A DNA stretch of 64,000 nucleotides from Yuukianura sp. NJ FZ-2021 (Eukaryota). Positions within the stretch are counted from its first letter, which is position 1. Every line of letters begins with the position of its first letter. The stretch is from contig JAJCTO010000009.1 in the NCBI GenBank assembly GCA_046563655.1, positions 62,001-126,000 of the forward strand. The letters run 5' to 3'. The translations under genes were made by a program, and so were the position numbers. This document shows positions 1,218 through 64,000 of the stretch, one piece after another. Under the pieces are notes generated by a model, which was given only the letters and a program-made list of their open reading frames with translations, was not told the DNA's origin and did no database searches.

Positions 1218-1998
1218 TTGACTGGGCGGAATTGGAGCAAAGGACAAAAGGACAGCAAATTCAGTGGATCTTCAATCCACCGGCAGCACCTTGGTGGGGT
1301 GGATGGTGTTAGCGACTTATTCGGTCGCTCAAGGACCTACTCAAGAGGATGCTCGGGTTCCGGAAGTTGAACAAAGTTGAGCTCGAGACCTGCTTATGTG
1401 AAGTAGAGGACACCATCAACCACAGGCCGCTGACTTTCGTGACGGAAGATGTGGATGATCTGATCCCTCTAACCCCAGCCATGTTTATTCACAATCTTCC
1501 GGTAAGTGAGACTCCAGAATCTCAAACTGTAACCGGTTCTGATTTCAACAGGAAGAGCAAGAGGCTGGACAAAATGTTGGAGGAGTTACGACAACGTTTT
1601 TGTAAGGAGTACTTGGGACTTCTTGTGCAACGAGGAAAACAGAAAACCAGAGAATTTGTCGTTGGTGACTGCGTCCTGATTGGCAGAGAGGACGTTAAGC
1701 GGATCCTTTGGCCCATGGGGATAATTCAAGAATTGATCACTGGAAAAGATGGGGTTCATCGGGTGCCAAATTGCGGACGAAGAATGGGATTTTGGTTCGC
1801 CCACTACAGAGACTTTTTCCGTTGGAATTTGACCGAGACTACCCGACTGGTGAACTTTCCCTTGACTTGGAACTGGAAATGGCTGCTCAAGACTCGGATG
1901 AAGAGGAAGACGTGGAAACAGAAGATCCGGAGCAACCAGTGACAACGACTACTCGAAGTGGACGCACTGTTCGTAAGCCCGAACTGTACTGCGACTAA
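1218..1998 (+). pseudogene. BEL/Pao element 2: integrase C-terminal half and DUF5641-like tail, inactivated
   Basis: Reads IQWIFNPPAAPWWGGWC*RLIRSLK (TAG at 1310-1312), then EVEDTINHRPLT...LTPAMF and WPMGIIQELITGKDGVHRV. After a frameshift near 1765 it continues AKLRTKNGILVRPLQRLFPLE...TTRSGRTVRKP*. Confidence 0.9.
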
Positions 1999-45362: not shown

Positions 45363-45795
45363 TGTGAGTAACCCCGCCGGGCGGGATTCCTCACTTCGTC
45401 TCCAAGCAGAGGTGTGTTACGGCACTCGGGATGAGGCTAGGATCTCAGTCATATCCCGATGGTCAGTCAGTGAGTGATGAGCGCTTGGTCGAGGAGGAAC
45501 TATCATCCAGATGGTTCCTCTTCCGACCGAGAGTCACGGCGGAGTCCAGTCACTGGAGTAGGGAGATTCTAGAGACAATAAAGGAACGTAGCCACCCTTT
45601 GCCTTCGTCTACGACTTTCCTTGAGACAGCATTCAGCCATATTCCTCAGCCACGATTCTTAGAGCTGGCACCCAGGACCTGCGCCACCTCGGTGGTGTTC
45701 GGACCTGGGCACAGAGGTCGATGAACCAGTGGACCGCCGACCAAGCGGCGACGTGTGTGACCCATGTCCAGGTTCACCCTGGCTGGGAGGTCACA
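45363..45795 (+). repeat. 5' LTR (TGTGA...TCACA, 433 bp)
   Basis: Matches 54935-55367; I see two substitutions (tatcAtcc/tatcTtcc, gcacAgag/gcacGgag). Confidence 0.97.
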
Positions 45796-45799
45796 TAAA

Positions 45800-45816
45800 T
45801 GGCCCTTCGACCGGAT
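45800..45816 (+). promoter_or_regulatory. Primer-binding site (TGGCCCTTCGACCGGAT, tRNA-Tyr-like)
   Basis: Starts 4 nt after the 5' LTR and closely resembles TGGTCCTTCGAGCCGGA, the complement of the tRNA-Tyr 3' end. Confidence 0.7.
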
Positions 45817-46032
45817 CGACTTTCTTGCCCAGTTAAGGTAATAGAACAACAGGTAATGTAGGGTACGTTTTTTTTTCTTTTTAGTTATAATAGTAATTAT
45901 CATTGCGAAACCTACAAAACCAAAACCACAAGCAGCCAAACCCTTAAGGCGACATACATCGGCAATACATTCAGCGTTTATATATTATTTCACGTTAGGG
46001 TACTAGCAAATACAATCCCAACACACTTAAAG

Positions 46033-46349
46033 TTGGTTAAGAAATTTGGTTCCATGCCGTCAACGTTATAACAACTTATGCGCACCTTGATAACATCCGC
46101 GCAAGGCTTTTCAACCTACATGCTAAGGCGAGATCGCAACTTCATGCAGATTTCACATAACAGAACCTGTTCAGCCATAGTGTGTTCAGAAATTGGTCAA
46201 GAACTTTGGTTCCGTGCCGTCAACGTTATAACACCTTATGCGCACTTTGATAACATCCGCGCAAAGTTTTACAACCGACATGCTAAGGCCAGAACGCAAA
46301 TCCATTTAGATTTCACACATATAACCTGTCAGCCATAATTTATTCAGAT
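46033..46349 (+). repeat. Diverged 160-bp tandem duplication in the leader of the LTR element
   Basis: ttggtt/caagaa.tttggttcc.tgccgtcaacgttataaca.cttatgcgcac.ttgataacatccgcgcaa occurs at 46033 and 46193. Confidence 0.85.
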
Positions 46350-49300
46350 ATAGATTTCTTTTATTTAAGGTTATTTTACTAAACTCAAATAATATAGCGA
46401 GACAACAAATTTGGTTACAATTAAATGACTACAGGGTGATACTCTTGTCCATAATCGTTATTTTTCCTTCCATCTCCGAATTTTAATTCTATTTTTTATA
46501 CCGGAAACGGTTAGCTAACTAGTGTAGCTAACCGACTAGACTAGCAGATGCAGCTATTGACCTAACATAAATTGCTTTCAACGGCGGGGATGGTTGCAAT
46601 GGGACCTACACTTGTTTCACTTAACCATACCAGCATGACTAACATAACCAAGTTCTTCCGTTAGCTGTATGAGGGTTAATTAGCATCGAAATCCACTGTG
46701 TGACTACGGGATTCATAATAACTCCCCTATTAGGTTTAGTTACACCACAATTAATTACAATGCAACAGTGATTCGCCTGTCTACCAATGTTTTCCTGCAT
46801 TCTATGCACGTACGATTTGCTGTTGCGTTTTGCAGCAAACTGAAAATCACGCAGGAGCTAGGGTGAAAGCGTAAAAATTTCAGGAGATCACTTTTGTGGC
46901 CTTGGTGGCTCTAGGTTTACGGAAAACTGCGACGAGGAAACATTCAGATTCTCATTTTCATTTCTTTTTTTTTGTAGTAGTTTTTGTTTCTTTTTATTAA
47001 AGACCCATTCAGTTGTCCACTCCAGGAAGCATAATTTTACTTGCTTTTGAATCTGTTACATTACAATGTCCATACTCCGGCAGAAGCATGACGATGGGAT
47101 TAGTAGACACACCTTAACACGAAAACCAGTTTCAGGCACAACAAAAGCATATTCACTTGGGCGTAAATCTCATCCCCAACCTACTCAAGGAAGCACATGA
47201 TCACATTCTCGTCGCAACAAGGGGAAAAATACGTAATCTTTATTCTTCACACAGTCCAATCTTTTTTGCTTGCTTTTTTGCTGCGTAATTATTAGCATGG
47301 GTTTTTACAACTTCGCAAATTCTACGCAATTAATTTACACCATACGAAGGATTTCGGACAAGACAGATGCTGTAGCAAGGACAAAAAATAAGCAGAAAAC
47401 AAAAATAACACACATGTAGCACACAGCATTTTGCAAAAAACTGGTTTTCCTGGTCATTAATTTCTTCCAATGTTGAAACGTATTCTTTCAGACAAGAACT
47501 TTTTTTTACTAATACTCAACGCGCATTGACTTTGGGCGTCAAAGGATCTTTGAAAATTTGATACAATTCATATTACAAATTCATTCAGCCTTCAAATAAC
47601 TTTCAACCGCACCCTGTTATTTGCTTTCAATTATCGCAGAGGTTCATAACAATGGTGTTGGAAATTTTCCTTTAATCAGCTTTCAAACTCTGAAATCACT
47701 AAACGCTTTGGAGTGGGCGCAAAATACTGCACATCAAGTACAAGGTTTATACATTTATTTTTCCTTACAAGGTTGCGCACTACCTCATGTTTTCTTTCAA
47801 TTTTGAAAGAAAGTTCACTTTCAGTTCACACCTTCACAAATCCGTTGTCATATATGAAATGTATAAATGAATGATAAATGAAGAAATTCCGACTTTTTCA
47901 ATTTTTTTTTGCTTATAAATGCTTCCAGTCAGAAACAATATGAGTTGCAGCTTTAAACTTTAAATTTCAAGTGTCCGATCCTGAGGAACGTCCATACTCG
48001 AATGAATTTCTGAATTATTTCCGGTTCGACGTCTGTGATGAACCAGTTTCAATCTGTAACGTTTCTGCAATGCCAAATTCAGATGCTGGACTTACAATTA
48101 CACTGAGAAACGTTACTGTTAGCAACAGGTTACAATTTTGGGAGCTACGGTTTTTAACGTGTGAATCGAAACGGGAAACAGTTTCGAGAATCAAAACTCT
48201 TTTTATGGGTCCCAAGTTATTTTGGCATTGGCATAATGGTACTAAATTTTTTGTTATTTTCATTATTTTTTTTTTGGTGAACAACGGAGGTATTACTCAT
48301 CCTGTTAGAGAAGACATAAGGTTGTCAAGGAAGCTTGAATCCGGAATTTACTATTTGGGAAATTAAACTGTCCGTCAGTCTCGGCGGTTGTCGGTGGATA
48401 ATCGCGGAAGATCAATGCTCAAGGGTTGTGTATTGGTCTTACGCGTGGTGATGCTGTTAATGCGATTATTGGAAACGGACTTGTTGCAAAAGAAGTTTTG
48501 CAAAATGCTAACTACATTGAGCTCTGAACTGGAAAACTATTTCCACCCACGTGGTGCCAAGTTGGCCCCACTCTCTTTACTACCAACATAAAACGTTGCG
48601 GACTCGTGCCAACTCGTGCCACTGTCCCAAATTACATACATCAACGGTTCTACAGTATCGCACGGCGCAAATTTCTAGTATAGAATTTTCCTCGGCTCTG
48701 CCTATGGATTATGACTTTGAGACGGAATTTTGATCTTACGTTAAAGCCTAAATCGTCGCTAACCGCATCATACAACGCAGAATCCATAATGCTGAAGAAC
48801 ATAACCTGACTTCTGCTTTTCTGGTTTTAGCCTTAACTCTTTTTTTTTTCTAGCACCAATCCCCTCACATTTTTTCATTTGTGCAGCGTCTTGCTTTTGC
48901 AGTAATGTTTAGCGCGTACTCGCATTGGAAAGTGGTCAGGCTAACTATACAAACCATCCGTCTACTTCACCCTAAGTGAAGCGGTCGCGTGCTAAATACA
49001 CACTATCTTGATTACAAGTGTAATCACGCAAGTGGCAGCCAGCAAAGAATTTTATTTTTAGAAGGGAACTAAGCCTGATTAGTTTGAAACCAAAAAATAT
49101 CCCGTCACCAAGAGAAAAAATGGCGCTTAAGCCAGTTTCACACCGAACGCAAAAACATGTAAATGATTGCTTCAATTCAAATTAGCGGTTGGTGTGTGAA
49201 ATCGACTTCACACAGCGAAAAAAACCGTTTTCGTCCCTTTGAAAATGTTTGCAAAAATTTTGTTGAAATCAAGCCTTATTTCCCGTCTAGTCTAGAGAAA

Positions 49301-49789
49301 AACTTAGAAAATCGCCTTGACAACTCTCTGGCAGCCAGCTTCTTTCCTAGTTGTGACGGAACGAAAGATTGGGCAAGTAGTTGCGAGACAGTAAGATATG
49401 CGATGGGTCTTTGTGGCTCAGTGGTCAGAGCAAGTTCCCGGAGTGGAGATTGGCGTGGGACCGATTCCACCCCATTCAACCCCAGACTCAAACTTTTGGC
49501 ATAGCGTTGGGATATGATGTCTCAATGTTGGCCCGAGGTATACTTGCGTCATACAATTGAGCTTTCGGAACTCCTAGGAGGACAAGTAACCGCACAATTG
49601 ACCAGAGTATAAATTCAAGTAAATCTAATGCACGTCCACGCAGTCTTTTCTTTCTCTCTCCACGAACATGAACAGATAACACCTCAGCTCGTCAGTTTTG
49701 GTCCTCACAACCCGACGGCCCAGTAACTACCCTCAGACTCAACGCCTGCAGTACCGTAGAACAGTAAGTTTACTTATGTTTGAGCAATA

Positions 49790-51048
49790 ATGCCAAAGAT
49801 AACAACACGGTCCTCCGCCCAATCGCCTCCTCCTAATCCTGAAACCGAGCAATTACAAACTCCCGGATTTTCACAACACCAGGGGAAACTGAACTTACAG
49901 CCTCGAGTAGTCCTGCCGTCTTCCATTCCTCCTGCCCCACCTCTCCCGAAACCCAAGTCACAGGCGTCGCTTAATCCCACAAATCCACCACCATATATCC
50001 CTTCACCGCTACCTCTCCCTCAAGTGATCCCTCCGTCTGCCATCAGCGGTAGTAAATTACCCTCGCACATCCCCACTTCCTCACAATTACCTACGACACC
50101 GTTGAAATTTTCAGCCAGTCTTCCCATCAATATGTCCCAAGCAACACCGACGGGCGGTTCTAAGTCCGAATCGAAAACAACATACTATAAAATTAAAGTA
50201 CCAACGTTCAGCGGCAAACCCGGAGAAGATGTTGTGCGTTATCTGACGAAGTTTCAATTGGCGATGACCGGGAACTCCATCCCGAAGTCGGAGTGGCCGA
50301 TTTTGCTGAGTAATCATTTGACCGGTACGGCTGAAGCTTGGCTTTTCTCTTTTTGGAATCAACCCGATGTTCCACATCGCCTCCGGCCTCGGCCCTTTTG
50401 GTTGACTACAATATGGTGGAACAAGCTCTGATAAAAGCGTTTGGAAGCACCAGTACGATGTCAGCTGAACAAAAAGTTATCAATCGACGACAACACTTGA
50501 ATGAATCCGCTACGGAATACACTTACGATCTGACCAACCTTCTCCGTCTGATGGATCCGGATATGCCCGAATCGCGTCAAGTACGTTGGTTAATACGTAA
50601 CCTACGACCATCCAACTTAACTGCATTGGGCATCCACAAACCTAAAACCATTGACGAATTCTTAAAAGCGTTAAAATCCATAGAAGAAACGAACGAATTA
50701 CTTCTACACCAAAAAGATGTGCATGTTATGACCCAAGCTCCAGCGGTGCTGGCGGCACAGACAGAGCAATTAGACAAATTCGGACGAATCATCGAGCAAA
50801 TGCAAACATTCATATTACAACAGCAAAATTGTGGAGAGAGTACAGCTTCTGGGCGCCACCTAACTGAAACCGGTGTATGGTGCTCAATGCATCAATCCGC
50901 GACAAACGGCGACGCAGAATGCCGTGCTCAGCCAAAAAACGGTCAGTGGATGGAGACAGCGGCCAACGCCCATCCGTTCTTGACATCAGTGACGAGCCGC
51001 CAATCCGATCCAGTCATAGAATCCTTGAACACCAGTTACTCCCCTTAA
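49790..51048 (+). pseudogene. gag: Ty3/Gypsy-like gag, frameshifted
   Basis: Pro-rich N-terminus, then KVPTFSGKPGEDVVRYLTKF...HLTGTAEAWL. A second frame gives RRQHLNESATEYTYDL...MPESRQVRWLIRNLRP and a degenerate knuckle WCSMHQSATNGDAEC. Confidence 0.8.
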
Positions 51049-51129
51049 CCACCACAATGACAACCAACTCGCCTCGTATTATGTCACCATTCCCACATTT
51101 ACACATCTCTTATCCGGCATCGCTTTTTG

Positions 51130-52600
51130 TTTTAAAAATGGGTACAAATGGTCTTTTGAAGGTATGTGGTTATGTCGTAGAATGCCCACCCGAAATTAGG
51201 TTACATAAGGGAGCGGGAATAAGCTTAGTCAATTCAGCTTTAGTTAAGTCTAACTATATTCAGTCGCCAGATCATACAATAATGTTGCAAGATTTTGCTC
51301 TACAAGTACTTTTGGGAACCGATTTTCTTCGGAATCAACGTGGCATAATCGATTTCGACCGTTTAGCTATTAGTTGGGAAGGCACAACACACGATGGTAG
51401 AATTTTAATCTGTTGTGCTGTATATACATTTACGAAGATTACACAGCCCAGGCTGTCCCTCTTACTCCCATGCTCCGGTTCTCCCTCGGCGCCAAATCGA
51501 AATAGTGTTGGTTGGTGTTCCCAAAGTTTTGTTTGGACGGAAATAGGACTTGGTCGACCTGTAATGCCCAACCTACACGTTTTCGAAACGAACACGAGCA
51601 TGATGACATACACTGACGATAACATGGAGCATTTCAATGAGTTAATCGAGTGTCCCGCTGAAACTCCGAATTTGATTCATACAAGGGTCCCTGAGTCAGA
51701 TTTGTCAGAGTATAGCGAAGAGTTAAACCCCGGGAAGATTGCAATGAGATATGCAATGAAACCTTCTTCGATATCAGTGGCCATGGTACGAAGGAGCACT
51801 GGCGCGAAGGTCCTCACCTCCCCAGTGAAATACAGTGTCCACACGGTCTATACACGTTGATAAATCATCCTCAAAAAAGCGGAGTTAATCGACCCAAGTA
51901 CGGCAGAGCAAGAAGCAGATAAAAATTTACCAACTTTAGTATTTTTAACCTAACAGGAGAACGTAATGAACTATCACACCAATCGGACATTACTGAGAAT
52001 AAATCCCGAGTCGGAACCAGACCAAAGGCACAGTTACAGGAACTTTTGGTTGAGTTCAACGATATTTTTGCTTACAAGAGAGACATTGGCGAAATTATAC
52101 TATATCCTTCTAACCAGCGTAACCTGTGTACTAATTACAATATGCCCACTTAATTATTCAGTATAATGCCCATACCTTCAAAGCCAACTGGCCCGTCGAA
52201 CAACGGAAATGCGGTCATTCGATAATAACAAAGTCAAAAATTACTAAAACATAGTTGAATGGTACCATGTAATGCTACTACTTTTCAGACAAAGATTTCG
52301 TCCCAAATCAATTTTGTGTAGGTTATTTTGTACTGGATTCGCTTATTACACTTATTTTGCGGTGATTAACAATCGGGACTTCCGAAACTAAATACGAAGC
52401 GTTCCAAGCATTATGGTTGCAAATTCAGACTGCGATTGCAGAACAACAACGCAAAACCAATTCTATACCGTAAGAGACCAAGTACTGATGAACAAATTTT
52501 AATCAATTTGTTTGGCGCACAAATTTACTGATATTATTCCGCTTAGTTCTGTCAAGCCTATAACGTACAACATTTACAAATCTAATAACACTAAAGCGCA
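51130..52600 (+). pseudogene. Decayed Gypsy-like pol remnant (protease and pre-RT linker; RT/RNase H/integrase cores not seen)
   Basis: LHKGAGISLV lacks the catalytic Asp of the D[ST]GA motif. VLLGTDFLRNQRGIIDF matches the protease ILGxDFL motif, and QLQELLVEFNDIFA at 52031-52072 resembles the pre-RT linker. I found no YxDD or DDE motifs. Confidence 0.6.
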
Positions 52601-54934
52601 AGTAACCAGTTGGCGGGTTTTTTCATTCATCGGTTATCAAATCCGGTTAATCTCTGGAAATATATCGAAACTCGAAGCTATTTACTGTCTACCTATGCTC
52701 CTATTGTTGTGGAAGGTTGGGAGGAGTGTTTTCTTTCTCCCTATTTCTGTCTTCGATGCACCATCCAATCTACATTTCCATTCGTAGGGGTCTGATACAC
52801 ATTTTGACGCAATCAAAGCATAATGACCGAATTCTCACTTTCTTGCAAACCGAGAAATGTGGGTTTCAGAAAGAGGCACGCTGCTCACGATTGGCGCCAT
52901 TACACGCTCCGCTACCCAGTACTGAGCGCAACCTGTTCAGTTTGACCTTCACACAGAAATATGGCCAGAAAAATGGTCGCACGCCATTCCATTGTTTCCA
53001 GAGTTACCCACGCTTCCTCCTAAACTTACCTCGTGTCTACCCGGACTCCACTTCTCATAACTCTGAGCAACAGACTCTAGTAGTTGTTAGGAAGCACGCG
53101 AACAAGTAGGATCACTAAAACACCAGATCGCCTTACCTATTCCAAGTTTTGAGTTGGCCACAAGCATTTTGGTTTTAGTTTTAACTTGTATTTCACTCTC
53201 TAGCAAGATGGGTAAACAAAAAAACAAATCTACACCAGGTTATCCAGTAAGTCGATGTTTTTAATTTTCTCAAATAATTTGCAAAACTTGCGTCGCCGTG
53301 CCTTTCTATGGCAATGATTTGTATGTAATTTAATAGGAATTTGCGGAAAATTGGCGGAAAAAATTGTTTGGAGGAAGATTTTTGCAAACCCCGAACTACT
53401 GGATAACCTCTTGTAGCCTATTTGTAGATTGGTTGCTATAGTAACCTTGCTCTCTAGTGTGAATGTTCATAATTTAAGTCAAAATAATGAACTTAGTTTT
53501 AGTATTAGTCTTAGTTTTAGTTTTAGTCTAACTCTTTTCCATTTACAATTGTATCATCGCAAGGCAGCGTCAACAACATGCGACTTCTACTCGTCGAGAT
53601 AATCCTTCTTCTCCACATCTCCACGATCAATTGTGCGCTTCCTTCCACAGATGATGAAGCCTTAGATCGTGTTTACTTTTCATCTTTAGCTCAGAAGCAA
53701 CCTATATTCTAACTCTGTGACCCCTACGTTGGATCGTTTACTTTTCGACTTCCAGCAACGACGACATGCTTATTGCCTGAACTTGTTACTCTCACTCGAA
53801 TTTTTTCGACGATTTGGATCTATTACCAATAGTCCTTCTGTGAGCGCTTGGCTTTGTTTCACGTTGTAGTCAGTTTACCATCCCACTGTCATTCTCATTG
53901 TCACCTGCGCTGTTCGTCCATCGGAATAATTATTTGGCGTGTCTACAATGGAAGAGACCGAGCAGCTTGATTAGTCAACGGTCCATACAATTGACACTAC
54001 TGTGAAATGCAGCACGCCGCTCTGTTCACATCTTCGCAGACCCGACACATAACGATGGCATACCACCAACTTTCTGAACCTAAACTTTCAAATTCGTCTC
54101 ACATACAAAGGCCCTGGACCAGTTTCCCAAACCACAATCCTTCCATATACCCCTCGTCATATCAAGAGGAAGGAACCTTCCTCCAGAATTTAACTGCGCA
54201 AAGTAGCAACGGGTATATCAAGAACTAGAACTCACTACGGTTGCTCAGTCGTGATTTTCGGATCCATCCAACGACCAATTTCTTCATTCAATTTCTTTTA
54301 AGAACACAACGGCCTGCTCTATCCTTGTTCTAACCATCTACAATCAACCGCTCAACAAATATACAAAAAACAAAATCCACAAAACATACTTAAAATGGGT
54401 TTGGACACTTGTGTGATAACCGAGAAATCCATCAAACGTAAAGAAACAGTTTTCGAAAAGTAAACACACACATATAGCTCTAACTTAGTGTAGATTTATT
54501 TCCAATTGAATTATTTCTTTTATGTTTCACAATACTTTGCTTTTCTTCGTTATGTCTTATACAATGTTTTTTCTCTGTTGGGTTTAAGTAATTCATTGTC
54601 AGTACCAACACTTACCTTTCTCTCTTTAATTCGTACATTCTTTCTACAAAATAATATAACATCATTTGACAGTGGCATGCCTGTGCTAACAACTTCTAAA
54701 ACTTTTTCTTTCTATGTTCGTAATCTATTAGTAGCAATGTAGTAACATACATATCCTGTAATCCAGCATTGTATTGACATATATATTATTTGAATGTTGT
54801 ACGAATCTTAGGCTAGTAGCAATTAGTCAAAAAACACATAAAAATATCAAAATGTTAGCATATTGAGCTATGACTTTTGTAAACAGACTCTGTTCAAATT
54901 CCTTGACAGGAATTTCGCCGTGACCCGGGGAATA

Positions 54935-55367
54935 TGTGAGTAACCCCGCCGGGCGGGATTCCTCACTTCGTCTCCAAGCAGAGGTGTGTTACGGCACTCG
55001 GGATGAGGCTAGGATCTCAGTCATATCCCGATGGTCAGTCAGTGAGTGATGAGCGCTTGGTCGAGGAGGAACTATCTTCCAGATGGTTCCTCTTCCGACC
55101 GAGAGTCACGGCGGAGTCCAGTCACTGGAGTAGGGAGATTCTAGAGACAATAAAGGAACGTAGCCACCCTTTGCCTTCGTCTACGACTTTCCTTGAGACA
55201 GCATTCAGCCATATTCCTCAGCCACGATTCTTAGAGCTGGCACCCAGGACCTGCGCCACCTCGGTGGTGTTCGGACCTGGGCACGGAGGTCGATGAACCA
55301 GTGGACCGCCGACCAAGCGGCGACGTGTGTGACCCATGTCCAGGTTCACCCTGGCTGGGAGGTCACA
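54935..55367 (+). repeat. 3' LTR (433 bp)
   Basis: Preceded by a short purine tract ggggaata and nearly identical to the 5' LTR. Confidence 0.97.
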
Positions 55368-56093
55368 GTTGTATAAGCGGTAAAAAGGCATAAGTTCCAT
55401 TTTTCACAACGTTTAACACCTTGTTGTATAGTTTCAACCCTAAGTTTAACCTAAATCGTAGTTAGACTTTTGCACTTGTGGTATGGTGGAGCTGGGCTAA
55501 AATACAATTTCGGACTATTGTTGGGCAGAAGTTTTCAGACATGATTTATTTAATGTGCAAGTTGGTAGGCAATATAAAAAAGTATTTTCCAAAAATTGTA
55601 TCCAGAAATGGCCAAAAATGCTGAATGTTCATTTTTGATTTAGAAAATGTAAGGGTCGGTTTTTCCCAGAAGTTCCATCGACGTGTGAGTTATCATGATT
55701 TATGATGTCAAAGTGAAAACTCATGGGTTGCACCTGAAATGAAGGCATGCTTGACACTTCACCGGCACTTCTAGTTTGAGCTCAAGGATGGACGCTGACA
55801 ACATGTTTTTCAACGTGTGATTTAATCAGTTATGCAGTACGACGAAGTGGACCGTTATTTGATGAATACCAAGAATTTTGGTATGAGCGGTAACAAGGCA
55901 TAAATTTCATTTTTCAGAACGTTTGACACCTTGTTGTATAGTTTCAACCCTAAGTTAAACCTAAATCGTAGTTAGACTTATGCACATGTGGTATGGTGGA
56001 GCTGTGCTAAAATACAATTCCGGACTATTGTTGGGCAGAAGTTTTCAGACATGATCTATTTAATGTGCAAGTCGGTAGAAAATATTAAAAAGT
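55368..56093 (+). repeat. 510-bp satellite, ~1.4 units between the two insertions
   Basis: Same unit sequence, in phase with the main block. Confidence 0.98.
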
Positions 56094-57399
56094 TAGGTTG
56101 GAGAGCGAGTTGAGCTGTCAAAGAGGAAGGTTGTTGTTATTCCGCTCCGTGAGATAAAGTTAACTGTTAAGAAGACAAAAGCGAAATGGAAAATTTCTTC
56201 AGTTCCTCACGTGATTTAATCCATAGGATTAACAGTCTAGAAAAAGTGGTACTGAATAAAGAATTGCTTCAAAGTTTCCTATTAGTAAAAAGTGAAATTG
56301 ATGAAGGAATTTTAAACTTCGTGTGTCGTTGCACAGAAAATCAGGTTGCAGAAAAGGGCATCAAAACGGAAGGAATTGTGAAAATGGAGCCAGGCTTTGA
56401 ACACAGAATTGTTATTTATGGACTCTCAACATCGAGTAAGTTGGACTTATTAAACCAGGTGACCCAGTTCTTTGAATTGCGCATGAAATTTACACCAAAA
56501 ATTTTGAAAGCGGTGAAACTTGGACAAACGGAATTTTCGCCGGTGCTAGTGACTGTTGACTCTGCAAAGCAAAAAGCAGCAATTTTTCGGAACTCAGCCA
56601 ATTTGAAAGGATCCAAAATTTCAATTGTCGACGACTTATCGGAACACGACCGAAAACTGAAAAAATCATTGCTCCCTGTTTTACAAAAAGCGAAAGCCAT
56701 TGGGAAAAAGGCATTTTTTCGAGGAACAACGTTGTTCATCAACAATAAAGCCTACGACCCATCTACAGACAATTACGATGCAGTACCAGAAAACTTAAAC
56801 GCAGAAATTGAGATTAGAAAGACATTGGACACTTTTTTCGAAAGGAAGGAGACCTTGGACCTGTTCTTCACAGCTTCACAGCAAGAGCACCCCGAACAGA
56901 CATCAAATAATGACGAATCATTACTTGAAATAGACCAAGCTCGGCAATCCCGTTCCCAGCCGAAGAAAAAGAAGAAAAATGACCACAAGAATTGTATGAC
57001 TTTTGCACCAGGAGACAGGAAACTCATCCATGAGAAGATGGAAAAGGCAATCAAAGATATTCAAAATTTTAGCGACATAGGCAAAACGTCAAGAGAGTTA
57101 GCGAAAGAGTTTATTGTAGAGAAATGCGCTCATTGCGCAAAAAATAATGATGCAAAGTTAAACTGTTTTTACGAAGAAATGTTTAAAGAGTTTCAGTTTC
57201 ATTTAGAAGAATATTTTGAATGGAATGAATATGATAAAAAATACGTCAAAGGAAGCAATACTAAATGCAACTGTAAAGATTGAGGCTAGTTATTTTGAGT
57301 CAAAACTCGCTCTCCAGGTTTGTAAAACAGATTAGAGAGTAAATTGGATGTGACCCCTGGGCTTCGTGCCCGATGGGTTGAATAAATAAATAAATAAAT
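56094..57399 (+). mobile_element. 1.3-kb non-LTR retroposed element encoding only an ORF1-like protein
   Basis: 14-bp TSD AAATATTAAAAAGT (56080-56093 and 57400-57413), (TAAA)n tail at 57381-57399, 3' stem-loop at 57353-57378, a single ORF and no RT or endonuclease. Confidence 0.88.
56186..57283 (+). CDS. LINE ORF1p-like RNA-binding protein (RRM + CTD type) with a C-terminal extension, 365 aa
   Basis: Uninterrupted ORF. The pattern RIVIYGL...AVKLG...PVLVTV...IFRNSANLKGSKISIVDDLSEHDRKLKKSL...AKAIGKKAFFRGTTLFINNKAY fits L1/CR1/L2-type ORF1 proteins. The N-terminus is leucine-rich and probably helical; the C-terminus has PKKKKK, CAHC and CNC. Confidence 0.75.
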   Translation: MENFFSSSRDLIHRINSLEKVVLNKELLQSFLLVKSEIDEGILNFVCRCTENQVAEKGIKTEGIVKMEPGFEHRIVIYGLSTSSKLDLLNQVTQFFELRMKFTPKILKAVKLGQTEFSPVLVTVDSAKQKAAIFRNSANLKGSKISIVDDLSEHDRKLKKSLLPVLQKAKAIGKKAFFRGTTLFINNKAYDPSTDNYDAVPENLNAEIEIRKTLDTFFERKETLDLFFTASQQEHPEQTSNNDESLLEIDQARQSRSQPKKKKKNDHKNCMTFAPGDRKLIHEKMEKAIKDIQNFSDIGKTSRELAKEFIVEKCAHCAKNNDAKLNCFYEEMFKEFQFHLEEYFEWNEYDKKYVKGSNTKCNCKD

Positions 57400-59497
57400 A
57401 AATATTAAAAAGTATTTTCCAAAAATTTTATCCAAAAATGGCCAAAAATGCTGAATGTTCAATTTTGATTTAGAAAATGTAATAGTCGGTTTTTCCCTGA
57501 AGTTCGATTGAAGTGTGAGTTGTCATGATTCATGGTGTCAAAATGAGAACTCATCGTTTGCATCTAAAGTGAAGGCATGCTTGACACTTTACCGGCACTT
57601 CTAGTTTAAGCTCAAGGATGGACGCTGACAACATGTTTTTCAACGTGTGATTTAGTCAGTTATGCACTACGACGAAGTGGACCGTTATTTGATGAATACC
57701 AAGAATTTTTGTATAAGCGGTAAAAAGGCATAAGTTCCATTTTTCACAACGTTTAACACCTTGTTGTATAGTTTCAACCCTAAGTTTAACCTAAATCGTA
57801 GTTAGACTTTTGCACTTGTGGTATGGTGGAGCTGGGCTAAAATACAATTTCGGACTATTGTTGGGCAGAAGTTTTCAGACATGATCTATTTAATGTGCAA
57901 GTTGGTAGGCAATATAAAAAAGTATTTTCCAAAAATTGTATCCAGAAATGGCCAAAAATGCTGAATGTTCATTTTTGATTTAGAAAATGTAAGGGTCGGT
58001 TTTTCCCAGAAGTTCCATCGACGTGTGAGTTATCATGATTTATGATGTCAAAGTGAAAACTCATGGGTTGCATCTGAAATGAAGGCATGCTTGACACTTC
58101 ACCGGCACTTCTAGTTTGAGCTCAAGGATGGACGCTGACAACATGTTTTTCAACGTGTGATTTAGTCAGTTATGCATTACGACGAAGTGGACCGTTATTT
58201 GATGAATACCAAGAATTTTGGTATGAGCGGTAACAAGGCATAAGTTCCATTTTTCACAACGTTTAACACCTTGTTGTATAGTTTCAACCCTAAGTTAAAC
58301 CTAAATCGTAGTTAGACTTATGCACTTGTGGTATGGTGGAGCTGGGCTAAAATACAATTTCGGACTATTGTTGGGCAGAAGTTTTCAGACATGATCTATT
58401 TAATGTGCAAGTTGGTAGGCAATATAAAAAAGTATTTTCCAAAAATTGTATCCAGAAATGGCCAAAAATGCTGAATGTTCATTTTTGATTTAGAAAATGT
58501 AAGGGTCGGTTTTTCCCAGAAGTTCCATCGACGTGTGAGTTATCATGATTTATGATGTCAAAGTGAAAACTCATGGGTTGCACCTGAAATGAAGGCATGC
58601 TTGACACTTCACCGGCACTTCTAGTTTGAGCTCAAGGATGGACGCTGACAACATGTTTTTCAACGTGTGATTTAATCAGTTATGCAGTACGACGAAGTGG
58701 ACCGTTATTTGATGAATACCAAGAATTTTGGTATGAGCGGTAACAAGGCATAAATTTCATTTTTCAGAACGTTTGACACCTTGTTGTTTCAACCCTAAGT
58801 TAAACCTAAATCGTAGTTAGACTTATGCACATGTGGTATGGTGGAGCTGTGCTAAAATACAATTCCGGACTATTGTTGGGCAGAAGTTTTCAGACATGAT
58901 CTATTTAATGTGCAAGTCGGTAGAAAATATTAAAAAGTATTTTCCAAAAATTTTATCCAAAAATGGCCAAAAATGCTGAATGTTCAATTTTGATTTAGAA
59001 AATGTAATAGTCGGTTTTTCCCTGAAGTTCGATTGAAGTGTGAGTTGTCATGATTCATGGTGTCAAAATGAGAACTCATCGTTTGCAGCTAAAGTGAAGG
59101 CATGCTTGACACTTTACCGGCACTTCTAGTTTAAGCTCAAGGATGGACGCTGACAACATGTTTTTCAACGTGTGATTTAGTCAGTTATGCATTACGACGA
59201 AGTGGACCGTTATTTGATGAATACCAAGAATTTTGGTATGAGCGGTAACAAGGCATAAGTTCCATTTTTCACAACGTTTGACACCTTGTTGTATAGTTTC
59301 AACCCTAAGTTAAACCTAAATCGTAGTTAGACTTATGCACTTGTGGTATGGTGGAGCTGGGCTAAAATACAATTTCGGACTATTGTTGGGCAGAAGTTTT
59401 CAGACATGATCTATTTAATGTGCAAGTTGGTAGGCAATATAAAAAAGTATTTTCCAAAAATTGTACCCAGAAATGGCCAAAAATGCTGAATGTTCAT
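57400..59497 (+). repeat. 510-bp satellite, ~4.1 terminal units
   Basis: Same unit, with a 5-bp deletion near 58787. It ends at gttcattttt where the Helentron starts. Confidence 0.98.
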
Positions 59498-60638
59498 TTT
59501 TAGTCTTCTGGAGACGCACGTCTACGACGTGCTGAAGAAGACTATTGATACGACTTTTCTGTCTGTCCGTGTGTCCTGTTTTTTAGTACCCTTTCCGCTG
59601 AAACATAAGCCCCATCGCAGTCGGGGGGTTATCTACGGCTCAAGTGTTTTTAGTAGGTCTACATTGTACTCAAAGTCTTACATTAACAACGTCAAAATAT
59701 GCGGCTGCTTCGCGTTGCAGTTTCTTAAGTCCTCAATATTTTTGTATTAGGTCTGCATTGTACTCAAAATATTTTTAAACAACGAAGTTTTGATCTTCTC
59801 ATTTTCTGACATTATGTTTAGTTACGTTGTTAAATTAAGACTGATAAGAGGGTAGAAAATCCGGCTTAAATGATTACTATGTGAATTGTGAATGACAGGT
59901 TTAAATTTGCACTCACAAGAAATTCTTATAATTTTGACTTTAAAAAGCGCTTTTCGACCCTATAACTTATACACTTAATAACACATGGTGCATTTATTTG
60001 AACCGATTTTAAGGAAACGATATTCGACACCTTCACTCGACGTTTAATTTTGTGCGTGATGCATACTTATAGGCGGGTGCACAAAACTCAATTTCGGTAT
60101 CATTATTTTGAGGCAGTTTGTTGTACGCTCTTTTCGCTATTAGTACATTGCCATGGCAACACCTGCATTATATTATATGTGCATGTTGTTTACTTAATTT
60201 CAACAATAATTGTTTCAATTTCAACATCACTATTTTGATAGAGTTAGTTAACACTCTTTATGCTACAGTGTAGTCATGACATCACTAACGGTACTTTATG
60301 TTTAAATTGTTTATTAGTTGTTTATGCTAATAAATTGCATAAAGTATTTGTGACTGCAATTCGTAATTATTTTTAAAAACATCTTTTACATTTTGTTTCG
60401 TATAGCCTCAACTTCATAAATTGACAATAATTGTTTCATTATATTCATTCAAGTGCTTAGTTTATAGTTTAGCTCATAGTACTCAGTTCTATTCCAAGTA
60501 GTGTATTATTTCAATCTCAGTTACAAGTCTACACAGTTTCGTCGGGTAAAAATATACATTTTCATCATTTATATTTATATATCTACTATCAAAATATATC
60601 ACTCCATTGACGTTTCGCTACATTATACAGGTATAATC

Positions 60639-61323
60639 ATGTCTAGTCGTGATCAACGGGCTAGAGAGAGACATCGGAGGCAGCTCTTAAGAGCCACTGA
60701 ATTCAACAATCAGGAAGGGCGCAGCTTACATTCACTGGCTCAACGTATGGTTCGTGGCAATGAAGAATACCGTGAACTGGAACAGGAAAGAAACAGAGCT
60801 GCCCATGTTCTCCTCAGGCAAAATCAAGAGTACCGTGAACAGGAACAGGGACGGGACAGAGCTGCACATGTTCTCCTCCGGCAAAATCACGAGTACCGTG
60901 AACAGGAACAGCAACGAAACTCAGCCGCTTATCGTACCTTGTGTGATCAAACTCGAGATGTATCTTGGTATTCTATGGTGGAATATTTCAAAGAAAACTG
61001 CAGGGAAGGCCCATCACACACGTGTGTTTGCTGTGGTGGACTTTGGTTTAAGAAGTCCATGAAACATTTGCGACGATCGGACTGTACTCGAGCTGATGAC
61101 AACCTTCTGAACTCTGTCTTCCCTGACGACGCACTGGAAGGAGAATTTTGTACTACTTGTTATGGAGCTGTGAGATCTGGCCGAATTTCACGACTAGCGC
61201 TTAACAATGGACTCGACTTTCCGCTTGTCCCTCCAGAGGTTTCGTCTTTGACGCGTTTAGAGGCCAGATTAGTGTCGCCTTACCACGTGTTTCAAGCGAT
61301 TTGGGCAGTGCAAGGAGATCAAG
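60639..61323 (+). CDS. Helentron Rep-helicase, first coding exon (charged repeats, CxxC..CxxC zinc finger)
   Basis: ATG at 60639 (MSSRDQRAR), GPSHTCVCCGGLWF...FCTTC, LTRLEARLVSP. A GT donor at 61324 removes the TAA at 61332. Confidence 0.8.
60765..60929 (+). repeat. 63-bp coding tandem repeat (21 aa, ~2.6 copies)
   Basis: EYRELEQERNRAAHVLLRQNQ / EYREQEQGRDRAAHVLLRQNH / EYREQEQQRNSAA start at 60765, 60828 and 60891. Confidence 0.9.
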
Positions 61324-61386
61324 GTTACTTTTAAGCAATTGAATTAGAGTTTGAAAAAATGTAATGCAAACGTCTATTATTTTTAG
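61324..61386 (+). other. Predicted 63-nt GT-AG intron (phase 1)
   Basis: g|gttact...tattatttttag|gt. Splicing gives DQGQLKTKGRIVNVP, restoring the conserved GQxxxKGxxVNVP motif. Confidence 0.8.
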
Positions 61387-64000
61387 GTCAACTCAAAACG
61401 AAGGGACGGATTGTAAATGTTCCAGTTTCCGTGACAAATATTGTTCAAAGTCTGCCTCGCCTGCCCTCAGACGATTCAGTTTTGCATCTCCGGCTTGCCC
61501 GTCAGATGCACATTGAACGGAATTACACATCTGGAAATATACGTCCGGAGAAAGTTATTCATGCTGCCGAAGTTCTGTGCAAATCTCCATTATTTTCTCA
61601 GCATGGTGTGTCAATTTCACATTCATGGCTGGCGGATTCTCGACGAGAATTGACTCTAATGGCTTCTACCTTGGAGAGTGAACTAGAAAAATCTCTAACA
61701 ATCACAAATGAAGCAAATGCGGTGGTCGAAAACGAAGACTCTACTGCAACTGAAACAATGTTGACTGATGGCTCAGGGCTTCGGATGGCCCCCGCAGAGG
61801 GAAATCGGCCTATTTCTGTGCTTCTGGATGACGACGCTATATTTCTAGCTTTTCCACAGCTATTCGGCGGACACAAGCTCACTCCAATTTGTGCTGGGAA
61901 GAAATTGTCACGTGCTGACATGTTCAAGTCTTTTGCGAGGAACAAGGACCGACGAGCGGCTGAGTCAATTGATTTTCTGTTGTACATGGCAAAGACTCTG
62001 GAAATTGCACGAATTACAAGCAATCGTACCATACACTTGAGAAAAAGAAGAGTAAACGGCGAGCTCATTGTTCCCTCAGCGGGGCAAGTGCTTCACCAGA
62101 ACTATGTCGATGGCCTCATTCGTGATGATAATGCTTACAAGGTATTGGCTGGAATTCGCAATGCAGGGACGCACTGGAAAAACGAGGGCAACAAAGTTAG
62201 AGCGATGATTCGTACATTTGGGATCGCTACACTTTTCGTGACCGTCAGTGCGGCAGAGCTAAAATGGAATGAGCTGATTGTGTTGCTGAAAAAAATTTTG
62301 GATGGCGTCGACATTTCTGAAGAGGATGCACAGCAATTACCATCGTCTGAGAAGGCTATGTTAATACAGCGAGATCCAATAACATGTGCTCGTTATTTTG
62401 ATCACCGTTACTCAGCTCTGAAAGCTACATACAAATCTCGTAACGGTCCTTTTGGCTCTCGTGAAATACGACACTTTTACGAGAGGGTGGAGTTTCAACA
62501 CCGAGGAAGTCCGCATGTGCATGCTATGTATTGGCTCGCCGATGCTCCAGTTTACAATCCAGAGAACAAATCACAGGACGAAGTTACTGATTTCATTGAC
62601 AGCATAATAACTTGTAATACAAGCTACCCTGACGATGATCCAATCACTGGACTACTATCTCTCCAAACTCATCGCCATACACACACTTGCTACAAACGAA
62701 CACACAAGGGGATCAAATGTCGTTTTGGAATACCCTTCTTCCCGATGGATCGTACCCGCATCTTGTTGCCATTAAATGAAGCAGATGATCTAAAAGAACT
62801 TCATGTAACATACAAAGCAGTTCGAGAATTCTTGGATAGTCGCATTACCGCCGAGAAGATGTCGTTTGAAGAATTTCTAGCAAGGATCAGTTGCGATCTT
62901 ACTACGTATTTACGAGTTATTCAATCAAAGCTGAAGAAACCTCATGTGTACCTCAAGCGAAGTCCATGCGAGATATATATCAACGCATACAGTGAAAAAA
63001 TCCTCCGGCTTCAGCAATCCAATATGGACATCCAATTCATTCTTGATCCATACGCCTGCTGCAGCTACATCGTGGACTATATCAACAAGAGTAATCGCGG
63101 GCTTTCGGAACTGTTGCGGAACGTGGTAGAGGAAGTCAGGAAAGGTAATGCGCCCCTGAAAGACAGTCTACAAGCTATTGGAGCGGCTCATAACTTGAAC
63201 AGCGAACTTTCGGCCCAGGAAGCAGCTTACAATGTTTTGCAAATGCCAATGAGCTATGCTTCTGAAAAATGCGTTTTCATTCAAACTGGGCCTGCCAGCC
63301 ACAGGACAAGGATGCTGAAACCACTAGCGGATCTTTCACAAATGGACCCTGACGATCAAAATATTTTCTTTAACAGTCCAACTGATCACTATGCTCAGCG
63401 CCCTCTTGCTTTAGAGTCCCTGAATCTCGCGCAATTCTCGGCATGGTATGAGTATTCCAAGACTTTGAGACGACCAACAGTTGACCTTAACGAGGAAACT
63501 GCAACTGCCACATCTGAAGAAACTGGTACTGAGGTTTCCAAGCTGATTGATAACTCGGGTTACGTACGCAAGAGAAAATTCCCGAAGGCAATTCGCTTTG
63601 TCCGTTACAACAAGGAAAAGGATCCAGACAACTTCTTCAGAGAACTCTTGATGCTTTATAAACCCTGGAGAGACGAGGAGAAGGAATGTAGCGAAGATGT
63701 AGATTGTCAGAAGATTGTAGCCGAAAACTTAGAATTGATTGCCAAGAACAGACAAGAATTTAATTTTTTTGAAGACTCAATACTTGACTCTGCAATGGAG
63801 GAAGTCCTCGCAAGGCCACCGGAGAATGAGGTTGACTTGGATGAAAACCAGCCTTCGACCGATGAACTGCGCGAGTATCGTCTAGAAGATGCATCAGGCG
63901 CTAACGCAGTTGACTTTGCAAGCTACGAAAGGCGACCATTTGCAGAGAGTTTCAAGAATACACAGCTGACCTCGAATGATGAGTACTGGAATCTTTTGGC
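61387..64000 (+). CDS. Helentron Rep-helicase, second coding exon: DUF6570-like region and HUH-Y2 Rep domain, open to the window end
   Basis: In one frame: VNVPVSV..LPR..IRPEKV, FGIATLFVTVSAAELKW (motif 1), FYERVEFQHRGSPHVHAMYW (HUH at 62514-62522), QTHRHTHTC, NMDIQFILDPYACCSYIVDYINKS (Y2 motif), SAQEAAY, LMLYKPWRDE. It is missing from the ORF track, consistent with no stop before 64000. The helicase is expected beyond the edge. Confidence 0.92.

Follow-up and report, generated by a model that had tools for sequence, protein, structure and literature searches.

The question raised by this locus is whether two complementary segments, one at the very start of a short retrotransposon and the other behind its open reading frame, pair in the element's RNA, and whether such pairing has been maintained. 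Working from the letters of the window (the whole 64-kb stretch of DNA analysed), the first-pass annotation had proposed an RNA panhandle between the 13-mers at 56099-56111 and 57304-57316. Both the sequence and an inverted-repeat search confirmed that these two arms are exact reverse complements (13 nt, 100%, 1192 nt apart; Table 1). It was also right that the 5' arm starts 5 nt from the element start, as the insertion begins at 56094, and that the 3' arm follows just after the stop codon, 20 nt on. The pairing of the arms is purely Watson-Crick, without G-U pairs, and without the copy-specific TG at 56099-56100 the match in the window copy would be 11 nt long instead of 13. When the 92-nt 5' UTR and the 116-nt 3' UTR were subjected to dinucleotide shuffling (n = 5000), exact inverted repeats of at least 13 nt arose in 2/5000 pairs and of at least 11 nt in 7/5000.

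The arms lie within an ORF1-only, target-primed insertion

The host of the arms is a 1306-bp target-primed insertion (56094-57399) within a 510-bp satellite, with boundaries set by the satellite register and by junction alignment against uninterrupted monomers. Both copies of the target-site duplication have one monomer-specific T in common, and in empty-site contigs position 56093 runs directly into the sequence after 57413. The insertion thus bears the marks of a non-LTR retrotransposon, namely the flanking target-site duplication and a simple-repeat tail behind a predicted stem-loop, which is presumably the element recognised by the reverse transcriptase (RT). Unlike in the L1 clade proper, the tail is not poly(A).

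We found no ORF2 in 56094-57399, which holds a single plus-strand ORF of at least 50 aa, and Pfam matched no RT or endonuclease in 9 further long frames tested from the window. The insertion therefore lacks the ORF2, with endonuclease and reverse transcriptase, that characterizes an autonomous LINE. What it does have is an ORF1p homologue that stands alone and was amplified as such, as in HAL1: the ORF1p homology is joined by several distinct 5' flanks in contigs from public sequencing runs and by a window-like 3' junction in two of these runs (X3 and X4). The host is an ORF1-only, LINE-tailed, HAL1-like retrotransposon, and its single ORF1p frame, missing ORF2 and target-primed hallmarks bear out the earlier description of an ORF1-only element with a LINE tail. 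The tail and the alternative continuation of other family copies (see below) had no other occurrence in the window, and an Rfam scan of 55900-57600 gave one sub-threshold snoRNA match alone.

Table 1. Features of the insertion and its flanks (window coordinates).
Feature	Position	Strand	Details
Left target-site duplication	56080..56093	+	AAATATTAAAAAGT, 14 bp; in 510-bp satellite monomer; junction alignment
Copy-specific 5' junction letters	56094..56100	+	TAGGTTG; absent from contigs of other copies
5' arm	56099..56111	+	TGGAGAGCGAGTT; family-level part 56101-56111, extreme 5' terminus of family consensus
5' UTR	56101..56185	+	Alignable with 5' region of relative L001 (CGAGTT..., TCC.CTCCGT.A.TAA block)
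Single ORF, 365 aa	56186..57283	+	Stop codon 57281-57283; L1-type ORF1p fold
3' arm	57304..57316	+	AACTCGCTCTCCA; starts 20 nt past stop codon, 83 nt before element end; homologous to AACTCGAACTCCA of L001
Alternative local hairpin of short form	57309..57340	+	57309-57314 pairs with 57335-57340 (GAGAGT); 3' UTR-only fold, z = -2.67
Branch point between two family forms	57326..57327	+	Window form continues to tail, second form to unrelated letters
Predicted tail stem-loop	57352..57379	+	Inner stem GGGC/GCCC, loop TTCGT; directly before GTTGAAT and repeat tail; from folds
(AAAT)n microsatellite-type 3' tail	57380..57399	+	From sequence
Right target-site duplication	57400..57413	+	AAATATTAAAAAGT; junction alignment

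The encoded protein is an L1-type ORF1p

The ORF is laid out as N-terminal helices, an RRM-like domain with a CTD (residues about 70-195), and a helical, Cys-containing C-terminal extension for which no relatives were detected. A homologue search with the ORF returned 351 relatives at E ≤ 1e-3, and many of those whose source contigs were examined sit on contigs of 1.1-1.6 kb. Profile alignment matched human LINE-1 ORF1p 2ykp (E = 1.5e-7 over RRM and CTD), with profile positions about 42-192 aligned to the coiled-coil end, RRM and CTD of the human protein. The predicted structure was confident for residues 71-190 (pLDDT 94-98), and human L1 ORF1p chains took Foldseek ranks 1-10. The RRM-then-CTD order of an L1-type (type II) ORF1p was therefore found by profile, model and Foldseek alike. 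Like the human structures (PDB 2ykp, 2yko, 2ldy, 2w7a), the window protein has a coiled-coil end, RRM and CTD; it differs from them in its short N-terminal helical part (helices predicted at residues 2-21 and 25-56, pLDDT 70-81, at the monomer level), its extra C-terminal helical region and its low identity (12-16% in structural alignments).

Pfam Transposase_22 gave no match for the ORF at E ≤ 1, nor for 30 relatives at E ≤ 0.01, and the sole Pfam match of the ORF was a sub-threshold one to DUF1137 (E = 0.059). In a word-indexed protein search among near lengths 0 of 2400 candidates scored, and the ESM Atlas returned no usable match. Among family copies, 16 of 34 ORF variants were synonymous versus 19.6% expected, which indicates a family under selection rather than a dead one.

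Both arms are retained in the main family contigs

We read family copies from contigs of four public runs (X1-X4), which cannot show absence. All listed 5' junctions of the family fell at 56101 or 56103 and carried flanks of their own in all four runs, and the 5' arm is therefore terminal. That these junctions coincide is the one hint of the effect on full-length insertion which the first-pass annotation had raised, alongside cis-loading of the protein, as something the pairing might favour. No variant letters were listed in 56101-56167 or 57302-57326 among the contigs that cover them; in contrast, 57231-57301 holds 14 variant rows at 13 places. The 3' arm was intact in six listed contigs that cover it, and across two organisms the main contigs of the family showed both arms unaltered. 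Conservation of the complementarity, which the first-pass annotation had named as a check, thus held in these main contigs and in the one relative described below, but not in one X4 contig, whose 3' arm diverged after 57310 and, set against the usual 5' arm, would form 7 + 2 pairs. Bins 57360-57449 were without cover in any run (repeats skipped) and are uninformative.

A distant relative shows a related complementarity of different extent

The only relative with DNA reaching the 5' region is L001, a 1392-bp contig with an ORF1p 35% identical to that of the window. Its start, CGAGTTTGGT (positions 1-10), is matched by an exact complement at 1294-1303, a site that precedes the L001 tail by ~80 nt, and 6/20000 shuffles of its 3' region contained the complement of its 5' start. 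L001 and the window have a CGAGTT/AACTCG core in common and their arms align, yet the L001 helix extends inward (TGGT/ACCA) at positions that are mismatched in the window; hence more than the inheritance of a single block is needed to account for the complementarity. Complementarity was thus kept, with different extent, in 1/1 testable relatives. As for the compensatory substitutions that had been suggested as a check, the main contigs and L001 kept the complementarity, but no true compensatory double change was seen among the window family and L001; the 3' arms differ at two positions (CT in the window, AA in L001), whose 5' partners fall just outside the L001 contig start.

The L001 3' arm lies ~315 nt past the annotated stop codon, versus 20 nt in the window, and the two elements therefore do not agree in having the arm close behind the stop codon. 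The layout downstream is an arm, about 70 nt, a hairpin and GTTGAAT, with no ORF2, and the end (a GGGC-GAAA-GCC hairpin plus GTTGAAT) is like the window tail. An Rfam scan of L001 gave no match.

A second metagenome locus, L002, begins inside its ORF and so offers no 5' region for comparison; towards the end of its downstream frame it has a motif with a loose likeness to the 3' arm, to which we gave no weight because C-terminal protein comparisons found no similarity (E = 8; P0012, E = 9.7). Searches with the window ORF gave 72 pattern matches in metagenome contigs and 42 in genome contigs, with 0 relatives in either, and viral contigs gave 61 matches for alignment A4 and 8 for P0002, again with 0 relatives. 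An arm-plus-tail DNA pattern occurred at 6 loci in viral contigs; we rejected these as chance matches, as tblastn found no ORF1p relative there (best E = 6).

The predicted RNA fold closes on the helix

Folding of the full RNA, another check named at the outset, placed a closing helix in both the MFE and the centroid folds of the whole element, in the window and in L001 alike, with the caveat that long RNAs yield many long-range helices in silico. Pair probabilities of the helix were 0.70-0.99 for the window element, 0.49-0.69 for an RNA starting at 56101 and 0.83-1.0 for L001 (duplex energies -22.7, -17.8 and -13.9 kcal/mol, respectively). One mark of a cyclization element, 5' and 3' segments that complement each other and are predicted to pair within the whole RNA, is thus present in the element. 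The proposed TCAAA/TTTGA extension (56118-56122 / 57294-57298) fared less well: its letters exist, but a 6 x 5 internal loop sets them off from the helix, the MFE and centroid folds leave them unused, and in X1 and X4 contigs the pairing is broken by a T>C change at 57295. In the L001 fold, a second 9-bp segment lengthens the helix and has no counterpart in the window.

The short form also has a predicted local hairpin (57309-57340), which would compete with the long-range helix because 57309-57314 belongs to the 3' arm. This hairpin spans the branch point 57326/57327, and no counterpart was seen by eye in L001. Taken together, the complementarity, its low chance odds and the helix predicted in both elements speak for the RNA panhandle first proposed, whereas pairing within the RNA itself is what we infer from them.

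Alternative explanations for the complementarity

The helix may have been carried over from a longer parent, perhaps an autonomous LINE, with the 3' arm between ORF1 and the next part, and be a passenger in the ORF1-only derivative; we regard this as doubtful. In such a parent the helix would loop out ORF1, for example controlling ribosome access to a downstream ORF. All four runs have contigs of a second family form, near-identical to the window over 56101-57326 and then diverging into other letters, and the window form could be a deletion derivative of it, in the way that HAL1 derives from L1 (PMC5753468). Two contigs follow the window form past 57326, to 57357. In X3 the contig depth of the second-form continuation was about twice that of the window-like one (196.4 vs 99.5), contig depth not being copy number, and 30 letters of this longer form are visible beyond 57326. 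Against a carry-over stands the distant L001, which has the same short architecture without ORF2 in its 1392-bp contig and thereby argues that the arm-near-tail layout is old or recurrent.

It is improbable that the complementarity is a product of chance or a functionless historical scar, left when an ancestral copy once gained an inverted 5' terminus (by RT snap-back or template switching, for example) that has not decayed since. Non-templated or switched letters are common at LINE 5' junctions. The window copy itself has 7 copy-specific junction letters, the last 2 of which happen to extend the pairing, and the missing compensatory change is in keeping with a scar. Snap-back copying of the 3' arm predicts the letters ahead of 56101, of which 2/7 fit, an uninformative result. 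A scar accounts poorly for arms that stay unchanged in the main contigs beside a variable stretch, for a 35%-identical relative that keeps perfect 10-nt pairing partly at positions unpaired in the window, and for the chance estimates of 2/5000 and 6/20000.

We give little credence to a DNA-level motif present in two orientations, in which a protein-binding or initiator site acting in double-stranded DNA would serve sense transcription at the 5' end and, in inverted form close to the 3' end, perhaps antisense transcription, with complementarity as a by-product. LINE internal promoters are located at the transcript start, and the 5' copy sits exactly at the presumed one. The absence of G-U pairs is also what a repeated DNA motif would be expected to give; judged from the letters, Watson-Crick-only complementarity cannot tell RNA pairing from such a motif. 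The shared part shifts four letters inward in L001, which a fixed protein site need not do, and at up to 2 mismatches the motif occurs in the 64-kb window at the two arms only.

The first-pass annotation had offered as its alternative a scar, in which a LINE tail became joined to some unrelated cassette or DNA transposon and the arms are that unit's terminal inverted repeats. This is highly improbable: the inverted orientation itself speaks for it and nothing else does, the target duplication flanks 56094-57399 instead of the arms, 83 nt separate the 3' arm from the end of that unit, no direct repeat adjoins either arm, the arms measure 13 nt only with no extension, the interior encodes a LINE ORF1p, and the unit as a whole bears target-primed hallmarks.

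Discussion

We give about even odds to the reading that the inverted repeat has been maintained as a cyclization element, forming a helix over a long range in the RNA of a HAL1-like (half-LINE) lineage of non-LTR retrotransposons with ORF1 alone. Pairing at the RNA level, selection on that pairing and a role as switch or scaffold are all three things that we infer. As a maintained helix, the first 11-13 nt of the element RNA would pair with a 3' UTR segment shortly upstream of the stem-loop/microsatellite tail, closing the 5' UTR and ORF1 into a loop and leaving some 40-70 nt between the 5' terminus and the tail at which the RT would begin. A cap-proximal helix of -18 to -23 kcal/mol would, when closed, damp translation, and it would keep both template ends together in the ORF1p RNP for a trans-acting RT.

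HAL1 is a non-autonomous L1 derivative that encodes ORF1p alone and arose several times (PMC5753468). Like the window element it has an ORF1p without ORF2, a target-site duplication, multiple copies and a presumed partner RT. The window element differs in its tail, a stem-loop plus (AAAT)n instead of poly(A), which suggests a stringent-type partner, and in its ORF1p, which has no Transposase_22 match at E ≤ 1 and bears a 170-aa extra C-terminal region. To our knowledge, no 5'/3' complementarity has been described for HAL1.

The helix itself may be likened to a feature of Ty1, as a functional analogy only. The Ty1 CYC5 and CYC3 sequences, short and complementary, lie near the RNA ends, cyclize the genome and are among the cis elements needed for retromobility (PMC7969010). 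The window arms are likewise short complementary 5' and 3' sequences of a retroelement RNA; Ty1, in contrast, has LTRs and a reverse transcription that takes place in particles and is primed by a tRNA, whereas the window element is target-primed and has its 5' arm at the extreme terminus. RNA viruses such as flaviviruses (5'CS/3'CS), bunyaviruses and influenza virus have complementary 5' and 3' sequences too, which let the template close on itself and tie the entry of the polymerase to both ends. The viral arms lie at the two termini or close to them and make up the polymerase promoter, whereas in the window element the 3' arm sits 83 nt inward from the end and a separate stem-loop is presumed to serve as the polymerase site. 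A literature search of titles and abstracts found no described LINE panhandle or cyclization element, in agreement with the earlier remark that this is not a standard LINE/SINE feature, a blank search being weak evidence.

A stronger reading, which we hold to be unlikely, makes the helix indispensable, both for cyclization and for end definition, across an old and widespread lineage of ORF1-only LINE parasites. The helix starts at the first consensus nucleotide in L001 as well as in the window family, and could for this reason define the RNA 5' end, either through processing of a read-through transcript at the helix base or as a defined RT stop. It might then act as a switch from an open state, in which ORF1 is translated, to a closed state, in which the ORF1p-coated template offers both ends to the partner RT. 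If true, target-primed retrotransposons would have their first described cis element of the panhandle type. Work on LINE cis-acting RNA has so far centred on the RT-recognised 3' tail and on 5' promoters or ribozymes, to which a helix joining the 3' UTR to the very 5' end would, if conserved, add a third kind of LINE cis element. The 11-13 bp helix would offer a mutable handle on how an ORF1-only non-autonomous element competes for its partner RT, and on whether end-to-end contact of the template affects translation, ORF1p packaging or copy completeness. Half-LINEs with ORF1 alone would then also be known from beyond mammalian L1, as elements persistent enough for ORF1p identity to have fallen to 35%.

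An ORF1-only insertion in a satellite array

A tandem satellite that repeats every 510 bp, with monomers 91-100% alike, occupies most of the window, and the ORF1-only element has inserted into it; the satellite is absent from the Tandem Repeats Finder listing, its period being above that tool's 500-bp limit. Aligning both junctions with uninterrupted neighbouring monomers gave clean boundaries for the element; on each side lies one copy of a 14-bp duplication (AAATATTAAAAAGT), and both copies carry a monomer-specific T. The empty site is found in public-run contigs, where 56093 is joined directly to the letters following 57413. The element occurs once in the window and ends in GTTGAAT(AAAT)n, downstream of a predicted stem-loop. 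A further interruption of the array, about 10 kb of non-satellite DNA, may itself have been inserted there.

Positions of the element, its parts and the other features of the window
Feature	Position	Strand	Remarks
ORF1-only element	56094-57399		1306 bp
5' arm	56099-56111		TGGAGAGCGAGTT
Single ORF	56186-57283	+	365 aa
C-terminal 170 residues of ORF	56786-57280		residues about 200-365
3' arm	57304-57316		AACTCGCTCTCCA
Local 3' UTR hairpin	57309-57314 with 57335-57340		predicted
Stem-loop of tail	57352-57379		predicted
510-bp satellite	5788-45368, 55371-56080, 57401-59501	+	array broken at 56081-57400
Non-satellite DNA	45369-55370
Two-copy repeat in it	46033-46348		160 bp
Open frames in it	47944-48366, 49784-51860, 52651-53109		no Pfam match
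DUF5641 frame	1313-1939		E=1.9e-8
Tandem repeat following it	2479-4583		402 bp, 5.2 copies, 97% identity
Helitron-like gene	60480-63998
DUF6570 frame	60480-61331		upstream of Helitron_like_N frame
Helitron_like_N frame	61365-63998		E=3.6e-20; runs past window end

The ORF had no Pfam match and no near-length match in a word-indexed protein search. A HMMER scan of 1.84 billion representatives recovered 351 relatives with E<=1e-3, of which 11 reached E<=1e-10; all 351 align to residues about 70-195. A profile of 60 relatives matched human LINE-1 ORF1p (2ykp; E=1.5e-7) over the coiled-coil end, RRM and CTD. In the AlphaFold model (mean pLDDT 74.4), residues 71-190 scored 94-98, and the ten best Foldseek matches were human L1 ORF1p chains. 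In a relative from a beetle genome, the ORF1p-type domain is followed by Exo_endo_phos, the domain with which a LINE ORF2 usually begins. Neither a reverse transcriptase (RT) nor an endonuclease was found anywhere in the window, the element included. The element, with an ORF1p-type ORF and a LINE tail, is therefore a non-autonomous retrotransposon that has ORF1 only. This ORF1-only, non-autonomous kind is known in mammals as HAL1 (PMC5753468), which has a poly(A) tail where the window element has a stem-loop/microsatellite tail.

Among copies, 16 of 34 ORF variants were synonymous, compared with 19.6% expected for random changes, showing that purifying selection has been acting on the ORF during family diversification. 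The C-terminal 170 residues are predicted to be helical, with a Cys-x2-Cys...Cys...Cys-x-Cys pattern and a KKKKK stretch; no relatives of this part were detected outside the family, and P0002, an ORF1p relative, has only the lysine-rich stretch in common with it. In seven of the eight unnamed clusters among P0001-P0014, the longest contig was 1.1-1.9 kb (2.6 kb in P0004). Contigs of 1.1-1.9 kb, about the size of an ORF1-only element, might be similar half-LINEs bounded by repeats, or merely short contigs.

Complementary arms in the element and its family

The first-pass annotation had described the two arms as exact reverse complements, which was borne out over 13 nt with a spacing of 1192 nt; the motif was found nowhere else in the 64-kb window (two mismatches or fewer, either strand). 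When the 92-nt 5' UTR and 116-nt 3' UTR were shuffled 5000 times with dinucleotides preserved, an exact inverted repeat of at least 13 nt arose in 2/5000 shuffles and one of at least 11 nt in 7/5000. The complementarity is real and unlikely by chance, even given the many features inspected in that first pass.

Among public sequencing runs, five DNA runs from two studies contained the family; four were compared (X1, organism A; X2-X4, organism B) at a likeness of at least 80%, all as Logan contigs, from which presence can be read but absence cannot. Family contigs span 56101-57326. Their 5' junction lies at 56101 (X1, X3, X4) or 56103 (X4), preceded by letters that vary by contig (agreement 0.62-0.72 where several contigs were pooled), and no 5' junction inside the element was seen among the contigs listed, which record presence only. 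Since differing flanks are joined at these positions, the family's 5' end is at about 56101 and the arm is its extreme 5' terminus; 56094-56100 (TAGGTTG) is peculiar to the window copy. The family-level arm is 11 nt (GAGAGCGAGTT), lengthened to 13 by the window copy's TG.

Across contigs of the four runs, 56101-56167 and 57302-57326 are free of listed variant letters, compared with 14 variant rows at 13 places in 57231-57301 (two at 57271). The 3' arm is intact in six listed contigs (records 7, 8, 16, 23, 24 and 32), and each of the 8 differences between record 7 and the window lies upstream of it. One X4 contig diverges from the window after 57310, which counts against arm conservation; a subfamily with a diverged 3' arm therefore exists. 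The suggested extension of the pairing by TCAAA/TTTGA is broken by a T>C variant at 57295 in family contigs. In the 5' UTR, AAG is inserted after 56168 in every organism B contig and 56171 reads G>A in all four runs, so that the window copy departs from the family majority shortly before the start codon.

At 57326, contigs from all four runs go on with non-window letters, and records 23 (X3) and 32 (X4) are window-like up to 57357; there are therefore two forms with 56101-57326 in common. The alternative continuation (30 letters visible) does not occur within the window, and the second form could represent the autonomous partner or a variant 3' region. Contigs of this second form were about twice as deep in X3 as those of the window-like one.

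Pairing in a distant relative

P0002 resembles the window protein in its short N-terminus and lysine-rich stretch, with 35% identity over residues 71-269. Its metagenome contig, L001 (1392 bp, no second ORF), begins with CGAGTTTGGT, which is matched at 1294-1303 by its exact reverse complement, ACCAAACTCG; when the 411 nt following the ORF were shuffled, the complement of the first 10 letters appeared in 6/20000 cases. The arms of L001 are homologous to those of the window: the 5' regions can be aligned, CGAGTT falling opposite 56106-56111 and other blocks being common to both, and alignment of the 3' arms gives C[A/C]AAACTCG[CT/AA]CTCCA. L001 terminates about 70 nt past its 3' arm in a GGGC-GAAA-GCC hairpin plus GTTGAAT, resembling the window tail, and appears to be a further ORF1-only element on a contig bounded by repeats. 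A second metagenome locus, L002, from a more distant relative, starts within its ORF, and the 5' arm comparison is therefore limited to L001. Positions 943-960 of L002, close to where an open frame ends and about 75 nt before an ATG, loosely resemble the 3' arm and its continuation; protein comparison gave this no support, and it may be chance.

A 6-nt core of the pairing is common to both elements, while its extent differs. On the inner side, L001 has four additional pairs (TGGT/ACCA) that are mismatched in the window; on the outer side the window has seven pairs, where the 3' letters of L001 are AACTCCA and any 5' partners would fall just beyond the contig's first base. The L001 5' letters at which a double compensatory change might show (window AG/CT vs L001 ??/AA) are among those outside the contig. 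The 3' arm had been placed just after the stop codon, which holds in the window (20 nt) but not in L001 (about 315 nt past the annotated stop); what is conserved is its closeness to the tail.

Folding the full RNA (1306 nt), as proposed in the first pass, placed the 13-bp helix in the MFE and the centroid structure alike, and both structures of L001 likewise contained its 10-bp helix. Pair probabilities were 0.70-0.99 for the full window RNA, 0.49-0.69 with the start at 56101 and 0.83-1.0 for L001, with duplex energies of -22.7, -17.8 and -13.9 kcal/mol, respectively. Folded by itself, the 3' UTR adopts a local hairpin (z = -2.67) that competes with the long-range helix; this hairpin straddles the branch point at 57326, and no counterpart is evident in L001. 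No Rfam family matched the window element or L001.

Discussion

We read the arm complementarity, very unlikely to be chance, as a feature that has probably been maintained, because it is terminal in the family consensus, invariant in the main contigs, and recurs with shifted extent in a relative whose protein is 35% identical. The arms may instead be oppositely oriented copies of a motif that works at the DNA level, which is compatible with perfect Watson-Crick pairing. The helix may also belong functionally to the longer form with 56101-57326, where the 3' arm would precede whatever follows ORF1; from the architecture of L001, however, the short layout would be an old or recurrent one. If a single template switch had left the complementarity behind as a scar, its persistence would be hard to explain. 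The remaining alternative, that the arms are ends of a DNA transposon or the scar of an inverted-repeat cassette, is contradicted by where the target duplication and the arms lie.

For a maintained pairing, a long-range RNA helix would be the simplest mechanism, closing the 5' UTR and ORF1 into a loop and bringing the 5' end near the tail, where the partner's RT would start. A cap-proximal duplex of such strength would also hinder ribosome loading. The helix could plausibly switch the RNA from an open state that is translated to a closed one that serves, coated with ORF1p, as template, or act as a scaffold holding both ends of a trans-mobilised template together. Of the first-pass proposals, the predicted helix and the apparently maintained complementarity in two elements stand, and the extension and the cassette alternative fall away. 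The cyclization sequences of some RNA viruses work by end-to-end closure of the RNA. The CYC5/CYC3 cyclization sites of Ty1 are described as working in this way (PMC7969010), and cyclization is the likeness proposed for the window element; at the level of titles and abstracts, we found no description of a cyclization element in non-LTR retrotransposons. Sequence and predicted folds from two elements partly support a view of the window element as a half-LINE, with ORF1 only, that also carries a cyclization element of the retroelement kind.
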